Notes: a model not told the origin generated them from the sequence alone. A DNA stretch of 64,000 nt from an uncultured bacterium (GCA_963695435.1 OY968788.1:280004-344003); one strand, 5' to 3'; counted from the first letter of the stretch, positions 6,174-18,901 are shown. A program made the numbers and translations.

Positions 6174-8966
6174 TTGAGGAGTATGTTGGACAGCCCTTCC
6201 AGTATTGTGGTGTTGGGATTGCTAACCGTAGGTTGGCTGATTTTTTTTGCGCTGATTATTTGGGTACGCCAAAAGGGGAAAGCAGCCAAACAATTTAGCG
6301 CCCCCGAGACTTCTAATGTTCCTATTATTACTACCGCAACTGAAGGCATTTCGAAGCCCATTACCAGCACCGAGGGGGTACTGTTGGCAGTGGAAGTGCC
6401 TAAAGACAATGAGATTACGCCTCTGGCTGCCGAATTGATGTTCGCCAGTTTGCATGGAATCTATCGTCCGATTAAGGCAGGGGTGCAGGAGCACATTAGT
6501 TTTGAGATGCAGGCGAAAGAAAAATCAATTCGCTTTTTTGTCTGGACTCCGAAACATTTGCAAGGTTATGTTGAGGGACAAATTTACGCGCAGTATCCGG
6601 GTGTGACGATTAGCGAATTCAAAGATTATACGGATGTAAATAAACTGGGCAGCAATATGGCAATGGCGTCAACTGACTTGCAGCTCACGAGAGAAGATAT
6701 TTTCCCGATAAAAAGTTTTGATAGTTTTGAAGTTGATCCGCTTGCGGCTATTACCGCGACATTGAGTAAACTGCAGGGCAAATCACAGATTTGGGTACAG
6801 GTTCTAATTCGGCCGGAAAATGACAGCTGGCGTAATCGAGCGATTAGCTATATTACGGCAGTGAAATCGGGGCGCAAAGGTTTTGGTGCGACTTTGGTAA
6901 AGAATCTTGGTGGCCTAGCTTCAGATGTATTCAAGACGGCAATGTCGGGAGGTTCGGCTACTGCTCCCGTGCCAACACCGGAAAAGAAAACAGAACTAGC
7001 TCCTGGTGTAGAGGATGCGCTCAAGAAAATTGAAGAGAAAAGTACCAAGTTAGGTTTTCAAACGATGATTCGGATTATTGCGGTGGATGAAACTCCACCA
7101 GCCGCCCAACAGAAACTTGATTTGGTGGTAGGTTCGTTCAAACAGTTCAATACCACTAATCTAAATGGTTTCACGGCAGTAGCTGAACCGATTCCAGGTG
7201 CGCAAATATTGCAACGCTATGTTCAACGAATATTCCCAAAAACTGGGTTTGTGTTGAATGTAACGGAACTTGCCAGTATTTATCACTTGCCAAACAAATC
7301 GGTGAGTACTCCTCATTTGGTTTGGGCGGGGGCGAAGAAAGGTGAGCCACCGGCTAATTTGCCGTTGGCGGATGAAACGCCGGCAGAACTTTTGACTAAT
7401 CTTGGTGTCACTAATTTTAGAGGCAGTCAGGAAAAGTTTGGCATTAAAATAAACGACCGCAGACGACATGTGTATGTAATCGGGAAAAGCGGTACTGGTA
7501 AATCTACGCTTTTGCAGAACATGGCGATTGACGACATTACTGAAGATCGAGGTGTGGCAGTCGTTGATCCTCACGGTGAATATGTTGATTATGTTTTGGA
7601 AAGAATTCCCGACAGACGAGTTGAGGATGTAATCGTGTTTGACCCGAGTGATAAGGAATTCCCGATTGGTTTTAATATTTTGGAAGTTGAAGACCCGCGC
7701 TACAAATTGGTGACGGCGTCTGGTGTGGTCGGTGTATTCAAAAAGATATTCGGTGAATCATGGGGGCCTCGATTAGAATATTGGCTAGCATCAGCTATTT
7801 TGGCCCTCTTGGATTACCCGGGCGCAACACTGGTGATGGTTCCCAGGTTATTTGTAGATGATGCTTTCAGGGAAGATGTTATTTCAAAAGTACAAGATCC
7901 GATTATTAAAAATCGTTGGATCACCGAGTACAACAAATTAGATCAGCGCCAACGAAACGAAACTATTTCTCCTATCTTGAACAAAGTTGGACAGTTTCTT
8001 TCGTCTGATATTATCCGCAATATTGTCGGTCAGCCAAAAAGCTCCATCAATATGCGTAACCTTATGGACGATGGCAGAATTATGCTAGTGAAATTGTCTA
8101 AGGGGTTGATTGGTGAAGACAATGCAGCGCTCTTGGGTGCTCTGATTATTACTAAACTGCAGTTAGCAGCAATGAGTCGAGCGGATGCGGCAGAGGGTAG
8201 CCGAAAAGATTTCTTCCTGTATGTAGATGAGTTTCAGAACTTTGCTACCGATTCGTTTGCGACTATTTTGTCCGAGGCGAGAAAATACGGTTTGAGTCTG
8301 ACTATGGCGCACCAGTACACCGCACAGCTCTCTGAAGCGGTCGGTAAGGCGGTCTTCGGCAATGTGGGTACACTTATTGCTTTTAGGGTGGGGAGTGATG
8401 ATGCGGCGTTTCTGACAAAAGAATTTGCGCCCGTGTTTACCGAACAGGATTTGGTGAACCTGGATGTATTCAACATTTATGTGAAGTTGTCGATTGACGG
8501 GCTTACCGCCAACGCATTTTCTGCAGGGACACTTCCTCCAAGCGCAGATAAGAATACTAATAAAGTAAGGGTCATTGAGTTGTCTCGCAAAAAATACTCT
8601 GCCAGTGCGGCTACTGTGGAGGAGGGTATTCGTACGCTGCAGACAGGAGCTATCGCTCAACCAACCCAAACAACTCGACCTTCCGGTCAGCCAGTGAGAA
8701 CTAATGACAGTAGTGGTAATTATAGTGCGCCAATCAGACCCGCAACTAAAATGCCAAATATCACAGGACTGAAAAGTTTGATTTCTAATATCGAACGCAA
8801 AAAGCAGGAGAAGTTTGATCCGAAGCAAAGAGAAGAAATTGCAAAGACATTGGAGGAGGATTTGAAGAGTGAGCCAAGTTCATTCAAAGAAGCGCTAGAA
8901 AGGGCTCAACAACAGCCAAAAGAAACCGAAATCAAACCCCGCCAAGACGACCAAAATCCTCTATAA
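6174..8966 (+). CDS. Membrane-anchored VirD4/TraD/TraG-like (T4CP, HerA-FtsK superfamily) P-loop ATPase with a long N-terminal domain and a disordered C-tail
   Basis: N-terminal TM helix; Walker [10 protein letters not shown]; DPHGEY; Walker [12 protein letters not shown]; a TraG-D_C-like block [19 protein letters not shown]...[14 protein letters not shown]; Q/P/T/K/E-rich tail. It is a paralog of 16478..18901. Confidence 0.8.

Positions 8967-18901: not shown

Follow-up and report, generated by a model that had tools for sequence, protein, structure and literature searches.

What do two coupling-protein-like ATPases do on a chromosome whose surrounding genes offer them no secretion system? 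The question is raised by a 64-kb stretch of a Patescibacteria chromosome (OY968788.1:280004-344003), hereafter the window, in which two large open reading frames (ORFs), ORF930 and ORF807, code for such proteins. All coordinates given below are window positions. The first-pass annotation had described the two products as orphan ATPases related to type IV coupling proteins (T4CPs), and the ORF pair, its coordinates and its domain layout were confirmed by ORF analysis, BLASTP, hydropathy and motifs. The absence of cognate partners was also upheld: among the large ORFs of the window, scanned with Pfam, we found no gene for a type IV secretion system (T4SS), relaxase, integrase or nuclease partner. 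The comparisons described below indicate that the motor of both proteins is of the coupling-protein type by sequence, and that their architecture and the predicted fold of their N-terminal domain are VirB4-like. On this basis, we consider it reasonably probable that ORF930 and ORF807 are domesticated, duplicated coupling-type translocases equipped with a VirB4-like docking domain.

The two proteins are paralogues. In a BLASTP alignment, they share 39% identity over ~780 aa (E 5e-180), pre-ATPase region included. The start of ORF930 is uncertain by a few codons, and the identical gene was called elsewhere as 926 aa. Transmembrane (TM) segments were predicted by a hydropathy scan with 19-residue windows and a threshold of 1.6. 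The scan gave a single N-terminal TM helix in each protein and, in ORF930, one extra 19-residue window, starting at residue 538, that was barely over the threshold (1.72). Together with the BLASTP comparison of the paralogues, this result bears out the earlier description of one TM helix, not two, followed by a large conserved pre-ATPase domain. The size of that domain had been given as about 400 aa. The conserved domain does exist, but its folded part covers ~300 aa (residues 36–335 of ORF807), the linkers leading to the Walker A motif having been counted as well. Walker A is located at residues 437–444 of ORF930 (nt 7482–7505) and 394–401 of ORF807 (nt 17657–17680). It is followed by DPHGEY at residue 465 and DPHGDM at residue 422, respectively, and by Walker B, which contains YVDE in ORF930 (residues 681–686, nt 8214–8231) and YIDE in ORF807 (residues 644–649, nt 18407–18424). 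A predicted helical insertion separates Walker A from Walker B in ORF807 (residues ~465–595; eight helices in the model). The C-terminal extension of ORF930 is without a counterpart in ORF807 past ~residue 820, and no Pfam family matched it. Extra C-terminal modules were seen in some homologues, either zinc ribbons (PF23477) or, in a WWE3 genome, an S1 RNA-binding domain (L087:11321-13138; P0402, P0404, P0415). The features of the region are collected in Table 1.

Table 1. Positions of ORF930, ORF807, their predicted domains and the neighbouring features in the window.
Feature	Residues or size	Position	Strand	Basis and remarks
Promoter-like site TTGACA-17-TATAAT with TG	12/12	4967..4995	+	just 5' of the sigma-r4/HARE-HTH gene
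Sigma-r4/HARE-HTH protein	385 aa; Sigma70 region 4, 48–98; HARE-HTH, 261–317	5004..6161	+	Pfam; ends 12 bases before ORF930
ORF930, type-A DUF8128/coupling-type ATPase	930 aa, TTG start	6174..8966	+	ORF, Pfam, BLASTP
ORF930, single N-terminal TM helix	~9–31, then RQKGKAAK	6198..6266	+	hydropathy scan
ORF930, DUF8128 domain	~65–372	6366..7289	+	boundaries from alignment to ORF807; VirB4 N-terminal-domain fold predicted
ORF930, TrwB/VirD4-like nucleotide-binding domain	~407–788	7392..8537	+	Pfam, motifs, hhalign
ORF930, C-terminal extension	~789–930	8538..8963	+	charged-residue-rich; long tail typical of type A
Promoter-like site TTGACA-17-CATAAT with TG	11/12	16031..16059	+	5' of ORF128 and ORF807
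ORF128, small soluble protein		16084..16470	+	ends 7 bases before ORF807
ORF807, type-B DUF8128/coupling-type ATPase	807 aa	16478..18901	+	ORF, Pfam, BLASTP
ORF807, single N-terminal TM helix	2–26, then RKSKKG	16481..16555	+	hydropathy scan, AlphaFold2 model
ORF807, DUF8128 domain	36–335	16583..17482	+	modelled with VirB4 N-terminal-domain fold
ORF807, TrwB/VirD4-like nucleotide-binding domain	365–750	17570..18727	+	Pfam, motifs, model, hhalign
Promoter-like site TTTACA-17-TATAAT	11/12	18874..18902	+	end of ORF807, 5' of ORF173
ORF173, N-terminal helix and two small beta-rich repeats with PANYASKSKL motif		18949..19470	+	conserved downstream partner of type B

Pfam matches were confined to the C-terminal half of each protein. 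The scores for ORF930 and ORF807 were 33.5 and 32.2 bits for TrwB_AAD_bind, 23.4 and 33.4 bits for T4SS-DNA_transf, 36 and 26.3 bits for DUF87, and 30.5 and 23.0 bits for TraG-D_C (residues 682–743 of ORF930). These scores are weak, yet all of them exceed the gathering cut-offs. Of the five families that the first-pass annotation had named for a profile search, four were recovered, including the TraG-D_C match already suspected at the C-terminus. The fifth, AAA_10, did not match, nor did CagE_TrbE_VirB. When the family profile was aligned with individual ATPases by hhalign, TrwB was matched with a probability of 96% (E 3.8e-9, 290 columns), in agreement with the coupling-protein likeness proposed before, and TrsK of pSK41 with 59% (280 columns). 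The DPHGD motif of the profile aligned to DPNGD of TrwB. The DPHGEY motif, which had been described as shared with HerA and VirB4, is thus not peculiar to these two. A search of the family hidden Markov model (HMM) against PDB sequences recovered TrwB (1.7e-8) and DotL (5.9e-6) and no VirB4. The VirB4 ATPases matched poorly in hhalign (TrwK 2.2%, Bacillus AAA_10 protein 3.6%; for TrsE, 70% within just 68 columns surrounding Walker B), and the TIGR00929 model gave 15.2 and 14.5 bits against a cut-off of 643. The structural comparison was made with Foldseek. The ATPase half aligned to TrwB lacking its N-terminal 70 residues with a TM-score of 0.62–0.67 (target-normalised) and 17% identity over ~420–470 columns. 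Judged from these comparisons, ORF930 and ORF807 appear to be P-loop ATPases of the VirD4/TrwB branch of the FtsK-HerA superfamily, each anchored by one N-terminal helix.

The N-terminal domain was traced to the Pfam family PF26449, which is named DUF8128 in the database context record. Precomputed PF26449 hits are recorded for a protein identical to the 807-aa product and for ORF930 in its 926-aa version. Our local copy of Pfam, which is without the PF26449 model, gave nothing at E<=0.1 on the first 370–420 residues of ORF930 and ORF807. A search with the N-terminal region of ORF930 alone returned PF26449 proteins only. The structure of the domain was predicted with AlphaFold2 for residues 1–372 of ORF807, with the use of a 72-sequence alignment and no templates. 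The model has a mean predicted local distance difference test score (pLDDT) of 89.4 and a predicted TM-score of 0.83. In it, residues 36–335 form an alpha/beta domain, which comes after an N-terminal helix. Its best 14 Foldseek matches were all chains of TrwK, the VirB4 of R388, one of them a 457-residue partial chain. The first 13 had E ~1e-6 and a probability of 1.0, and matches other than TrwK appeared only above E 5e-3. The full-length ORF807 model (pLDDT 88.1) behaved in the same way: its top seven matches were whole TrwK chains, aligned co-linearly over ~850–915 columns, and these were followed by TrwB (ATPase half only) and then by HerA and DotL. The global TM-score of the full-length model against TrwK is low because the two domains are oriented differently. 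From the predicted model and its Foldseek matches, we assign the DUF8128 domain to the VirB4 N-terminal-domain fold. In TrwK, residues 15–400 constitute the N-terminal domain and provide the whole central/outside subunit interface of the VirB4 dimer; the same domain binds VirB3 as well as the tails of VirB8 in the R388 machine (PMC9259494).

Because each protein has a single TM helix followed by a K/R-rich stretch, the positive-inside rule would place the DUF8128 domain and the ATPase half on the same, cytoplasmic side of the membrane. An extracytoplasmic fold of the N-terminal domain, which had been suggested earlier, was rejected on this ground and on the ground that the predicted fold is that of a cytoplasmic domain; it is in practice excluded.

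The proteins can be compared with two families of ATPases. With the VirD4/TrwB T4CPs (TrwB of R388, DotL, TrsK) they share a nucleotide-binding domain that is homologous at the profile level, with Walker A, DPxGD and Walker B aligned, as well as the TraG-D_C match, an N-terminal membrane anchor and, perhaps, a helical insertion between Walker A and Walker B. They differ in that the T4CPs have two TM helices and little before the nucleotide-binding domain, whereas ORF930 and ORF807 have one TM helix and a ~300-aa domain predicted to be cytoplasmic. With VirB4 (TrwK of R388; PDB 7o42, 8rtd) they share the overall plan of a ~350–400-aa N-terminal domain followed by a ~400-aa RecA-like ATPase. However, TrwK is tethered by VirB3, while ORF930 and ORF807 carry their own TM anchor; their ATPase half is nearer to TrwB; and no virB3, virB6 or virB8 was found in the window or among the neighbourhood clusters of related loci. 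The mosaic of motifs proposed in the first-pass annotation did not survive in its original form, but a mosaic does remain, in which a VirB4-like N-domain fold is joined to a VirD4/TrwB-like ATPase sequence.

Related loci were then compared. In those with two copies, the proteins fall into a type A, like ORF930, of 858–1073 aa and a type B, like ORF807, of 790–855 aa. Identity is 47–62% within type A and 43–70% within type B. Between the types it amounts to 33–39% for full-length proteins; a truncated type A in L003 reaches 46%. The split holds across the Kazan, Berkelbacteria and Saccharibacteria-labelled loci, and on these identities ORF930 and ORF807 stand for two ancient groups of orthologues. 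L027 has its two genes side by side, whereas 2–3 kb separate them in L016 and L031. In a related Kazan genome, with ~70% protein identity, LigA and GatCAB come after type A and are followed by a small ORF, type B, the ORF173 homologue and Mfd, as in the window.

To describe the neighbours of the two types, the genes of 84 type-B loci and of 84 type-A loci from metagenomes were clustered. An upstream gene of any kind was present in 69 of the type-A loci. In 46 loci, a member of the cluster that includes the sigma-r4/HARE-HTH gene of the window lies upstream, on the same strand as type A in 42 of the 46 and with a median gap of 61 nt. A gene of this kind was also seen in L085, L087 and L088. In 19 of the 84 loci, type A is split into a ~420-aa protein with the TM helix and DUF8128 and a separate ATPase of ~600 aa. 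The loci with split genes include L087:10001-13138, L085, L086 and L088, and the arrangement resembles the division of VirB4 seen in TrsD/TrsE as well as the haloarchaeal gene pair described below. The standalone ~420-aa DUF8128 proteins were also considered as TrsD-like proteins beside virB4; this was rejected, as they are split type-A genes with their own ATPase next to them. Upstream of type B, a small soluble protein on the same strand is present in 52 of the 84 loci, directly so in 50 of these. The small proteins form clusters of 20, 17 and 15 loci, in none of which a TM segment was found; they have a disordered N-terminal part and a short helical C-terminal part. When they were tested as one family with hhalign, no homology was detected among the three clusters or between them and ORF128 (probability <1%). 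Homologues of ORF173 occur on the same strand in 25 of the 84 type-B loci, and in 15 of these they immediately follow the type-B gene. They are 80% identical in a Kazan genome and 52% identical in Kerfeldbacteria. Searches of Pfam, PDB sequences and PADLOC gave nothing significant for the ORF173 family, and the best PDB match of its profile, the DotY subunit from the coupling complex of Legionella, was at chance level (E 0.69). DnaX (19 loci) and GyrB (11 loci) recur near type-B genes. No T4SS or relaxase gene recurs in the ~165 related Patescibacteria loci.

Linkage to a relaxase and a T4SS, absent from the window and from these loci, was found among relatives on plasmids. In tblastn searches of PLSDB, 47 records matched at least 80% of the 807-aa protein. 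With the N-domain alone, 32 records were matched, mostly haloarchaeal megaplasmids, together with B. subtilis and Pontibacillus plasmids. The B. subtilis plasmid NRS6116_2 codes for a 913-aa protein (WP_144625398.1) with a PF26449 domain of its own. The family profile aligned to this protein with a probability of 100% (E 4.7e-42) over 660 columns, among them those of the N-domain. Its gene is directly followed by a "replication-relaxation family" gene and then by TcpC, TcpD, TcpE and an AAA_10 VirB4 (E 8e-85). An independent metagenome contig of Firmicutes type repeats this gene order with Replic_Relax, TcpC and TcpE. In Natrinema pellirubrum pNATPE02, the gene for a DUF8128-like protein of 375 aa (hhalign 99.2%) is followed by that for a T4CP-like ATPase of 1019 aa (99.8%), with a pilin gene and a further ATPase, of 1085 aa, alongside. 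These two haloarchaeal proteins match the two halves of the window proteins and mirror the split type-A genes of some Patescibacteria. The Firmicutes plasmid and haloarchaeal proteins belong to the same Pfam family and are homologous over the full length, N-domain included, although only ~23–29% identical to the window proteins. All are encoded on plasmids, in single copy, and are placed beside Replic_Relax, TcpC/D/E and VirB4, or beside a pilin and a second ATPase. In their linkage to a relaxase-type gene and a T4SS operon, the Firmicutes relatives resemble the VirD4/TrwB T4CPs, from which the Patescibacteria genes differ as a chromosomal core of two ancient types unlinked to relaxase or T4SS. 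By gene order, the DUF8128 family of the Firmicutes and haloarchaeal elements takes the coupling protein's position within an apparatus of conjugation type, where it coexists with a canonical VirB4.

The plasmids themselves deserve a remark. NRS6116_2 (63.6 kb; L170 1-27059) was typed as "non-mobilizable" by MOB-suite. Nevertheless, genes for a T2SS/T4P/T4SS-family ATPase (accompanied by a DUF4320 gene) and for a peptidoglycan hydrolase are present on it besides those for the DUF8128 ATPase, the replication-relaxation protein, and TcpC/D/E with VirB4, and it may be an unrecognised conjugative plasmid. The pNATPE02 cluster (L171 3970-16069), with a pilin, several hypotheticals, the 1085-aa ATPase, the 375-aa DUF8128-like protein and the 1019-aa coupling-type ATPase, looks like an uncharacterised archaeal conjugation-type apparatus.

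The family is large. A search with the 807-aa protein gave more than 5,256 homologues of ~800 aa. Every listed one carries PF26449, placed ahead of PF10412, PF01935, PF02534 or PF12696, and those named among the listed homologues come from Patescibacteria (Kazan, Kerfeldbacteria, Parcubacteria etc.) or from an unclassified bacterium. An exhaustive HMMER search with an N-domain-only profile gave 4,325 representatives of 50%-identity clusters. No mention of PF26449 or DUF8128 was found in the searchable literature. According to Quinonero-Coronel et al. (2025), 5,713 VirD4-type "T4CP homologues" are present in 2,918 of 3,035 Patescibacteria genomes, about two per genome (PMC12102498), which matches the ORF930/ORF807 pair. 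The distinct subfamily supposed in the first-pass annotation is therefore real, but it is already catalogued as PF26449/DUF8128 and its members have very probably been counted as T4CP homologues. The accessible text of that paper holds no description of the N-domain, of two orthologue groups, of partner genes or of plasmid relatives. As far as the searchable literature shows, the new elements are the assignment of DUF8128 to the VirB4 fold, its predicted cytoplasmic placement, the orthologue groups A and B with their partners, the split-gene variants, and the link to the coupling-protein slot of plasmids.

How could such a pair work? According to the explanation that we favour, the Patescibacteria proteins would have come from a conjugation apparatus of monoderms or archaea, or have been shared with one, and would have become a chromosomal core function. 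By analogy with TrwB, ORF930 and ORF807 may form membrane-associated rings. The VirB4-like domain could serve dimerisation, possibly of A with B, or docking to membrane partners of the VirB3/VirB4/VirB6 type. Driven by ATP hydrolysis, the pair would then deliver its substrate, which is most likely DNA or nucleoprotein, to a channel of the envelope; the chromosomal T4SS of Patescibacteria is the most plausible candidate for that channel. For substrate recognition, or as adaptors, the candidates are the sigma-r4/HARE-HTH protein with type A and the ORF173-family protein with type B.

Several points weigh against this explanation. Ring formation, substrate and channel of the Patescibacteria pair are all inferred. 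The kinship of the N-domain with VirB4 is seen in structure only: a clean mapping to a known VirB4 N-domain had been named as a possible refutation of the mosaic, and although the predicted fold does match TrwK in Foldseek, the DUF8128 profile gave <1% in hhalign against the N-domain of TrwK, against TrsE and TrsD (both of pSK41) and against the N-domain of the Bacillus AAA_10 VirB4. This sequence test is weak because its targets were single sequences, and both convergence and a very old split fit the outcome. In the ATPase half, the NCBIfam T4CP models scored far under their cut-offs (conju_CD1115, 41.7 and 44.3 bits vs 250; SXT_TraD, 41.2 and 52.4 vs 366; TraD_Ftype, 18 and 19.4 vs 521). The T4CP homologues of Patescibacteria are very probably the DUF8128 proteins, an equation based on copy number and profile hits. 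According to PMC12102498, only 148 of the 5,713 lie near virB4, they occur in ~96% of genomes (2,918) vs ~80% (2,417) for virB4, and the T4CP homologue of S. epibionticum is reported to be non-essential while the T4SS genes are essential. The essential T4SS cluster described by Wang et al. (2023) is without a recognisable coupling protein or relaxase (PMC10633639). Given the rare proximity to virB4, the wider distribution and the reported dispensability, a T4SS role of the Patescibacteria pair is questionable.

These observations lend some weight to the main rival explanation, housekeeping DNA translocases that act independently of any T4SS, either as an FtsK-like septal motor that clears the chromosome or as the missing cytoplasmic motor of ComEC uptake, with the sigma-r4/HARE-HTH protein recognising DNA in trans. 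Besides the distribution figures just given, the core context agrees with such a role (LigA, UvrA/C and Mfd here, DnaX and GyrB elsewhere), as does the conserved DNA-binding-type partner upstream of type A, although gene neighbourhood is weak evidence in such small genomes. The com genes conserved across the phyla of the candidate phyla radiation are ComEC, DprA and ComFC, the ComFA motor not being named (PMC10633639), and com genes are dispensable in S. epibionticum just as the T4CP homologue is, in contrast to the T4SS (PMC10633639, PMC12102498). Weak NCBIfam matches to CedD and CedB, two ATPases of archaeal DNA import, point the same way, but they are limited to the Walker A region and far under cut-off. 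On the other hand, the nearest relatives outside Patescibacteria sit in conjugation operons, and TM7x has a separate gene annotated as ftsK, the annotation being taken as given (PMC10768705). ORF930 and ORF807 belong to one ATPase superfamily with HerA and FtsK, with DUF87 over cut-off and a Foldseek match to HerA (4d2i, E ~3e-13), but they are without a HAS-barrel, a NurA partner or an FtsK gamma domain. The FtsK_SpoIIIE model (PF01580) gave 13.8 and 15.7 bits against a cut-off of 24, with no gamma-domain match, and the NCBIfam HerA models gave 13–17 bits against cut-offs of 800–970. FtsK and SpoIIIE have a multi-TM N-terminus, unlike the single helix of ORF930 and ORF807. We regard the housekeeping role as possible, though on the whole doubtful. 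A related proposal, which we hold to be rather unlikely, is that the DUF8128 ATPases keep an ancestral plan of two domains, a VirB4-type N-domain and a coupling-type motor, from which VirB4 and the VirD4-type coupling proteins would both derive, and that the A/B pair was exapted as a heteromeric, membrane-anchored, T4SS-independent core DNA translocase, in which the sigma-r4/HARE-HTH protein would be the DNA-recognition subunit in trans. Its task may be powering ComEC-dependent DNA uptake, for which no ComFA motor is listed, or clearing DNA at division. Exaptation of the Patescibacteria T4CP homologues was raised as possible by Quinonero-Coronel et al. (PMC12102498).

The remaining explanations fit the data less well. 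If the proteins were divergent VirB4 paralogues, that is, ATPases of T4SS assembly or pilus biogenesis and not coupling proteins, their two-domain plan of ~800 aa in total, the predicted fold of the N-domain and the TrwK chains at the head of the Foldseek list for the full-length model would be as expected. The ATPase half is, however, TrwB-like and not VirB4-like in the hhalign, Pfam and TIGR00929 comparisons reported above. Moreover, Patescibacteria possess a genuine, separate VirB4 clade (PMC12102498), and the Bacillus plasmid homologue coexists with a canonical AAA_10 VirB4 and adjoins a relaxase-type gene, so we judge this reading quite improbable. Anti-phage defence of the HerA or MADS type was considered because the PADLOC model mad8 matches the ATPase halves (E 7e-21 and 2.6e-17), several HerA models match weakly, and DUF87 is over its cut-off. 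Such a role is very improbable: no nuclease, Sir2, methyltransferase or other mad gene was found in the window or recurs in the ~165 related loci, the HerA-type N-terminal barrel is absent from both models, and the HerA scores are low. The proteins also form near-universal, syntenic, lineage-specific orthologue groups, not patchy islands (distribution from PMC12102498). In particular, no further gene of the eight-gene mad operon was recognised: the four flanking ORFs scanned with PADLOC matched no mad model, and the other window ORFs are housekeeping genes by Pfam. With 61 and 73 bits, mad8 outscores every Pfam coupling-protein model on both ATPase halves, and MADS may accordingly use a related ATPase of the DUF87/TraG-D_C type. 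Finally, the conjugation-type domains might suggest remnants of an integrated conjugative element in this genome. We give this hardly any credence, as GC content is uniform over the whole window, gene order is kept in the related Kazan genome, no integrase or relaxase is present in the window, and the family spans the whole phylum.

The other large ORFs scanned in the window are all of a housekeeping type. They code for UvrA, UvrC, LigA, GatCAB, Mfd, Der, DacA (D-Ala-D-Ala carboxypeptidase), a class II aminoacyl-tRNA synthetase, Nfo, RpoD, glycosyltransferases, GltX, SHMT, PyrG and GyrB. In the case of the UvrC ORF (2134–4164), the listed GTG start gives an N-terminal extension of ~67 aa that is unlike UvrC, and the true start is probably the Met of "MAINSKLVLK". 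GC skew is +0.17 to +0.32 over positions 1–20000, where all genes are on the plus strand, and near zero over 20000–64000, where most genes are on the minus strand. The strand switch is located at ~20.3–20.7 kb, beside a terminator-like hairpin (20339–20364). The three promoter-like sites of Table 1 are the best consensus matches in 4400–20600, the one upstream of the sigma-r4/HARE-HTH gene scoring highest. Because the total number of such matches in this interval was not above the shuffled expectation, the sites are only suggestive; with this reservation, the highest-scoring one probably starts a transcription unit covering 5004–8966.

A large part of bacterial diversity is accounted for by Patescibacteria. 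These cannot grow as epibionts without their T4SS, but the T4SS cluster is without a coupling protein or relaxase. Nearly every genome of the group keeps two unexplained coupling-type ATPases away from that cluster. The DUF8128 family is a candidate structural bridge between VirB4 and VirD4 in the evolution of the T4SS. The predicted VirB4 fold, the types A and B with their partners, and the full-length relatives in the coupling-protein slot of Bacillus plasmid operons make this domain of unknown function experimentally approachable.

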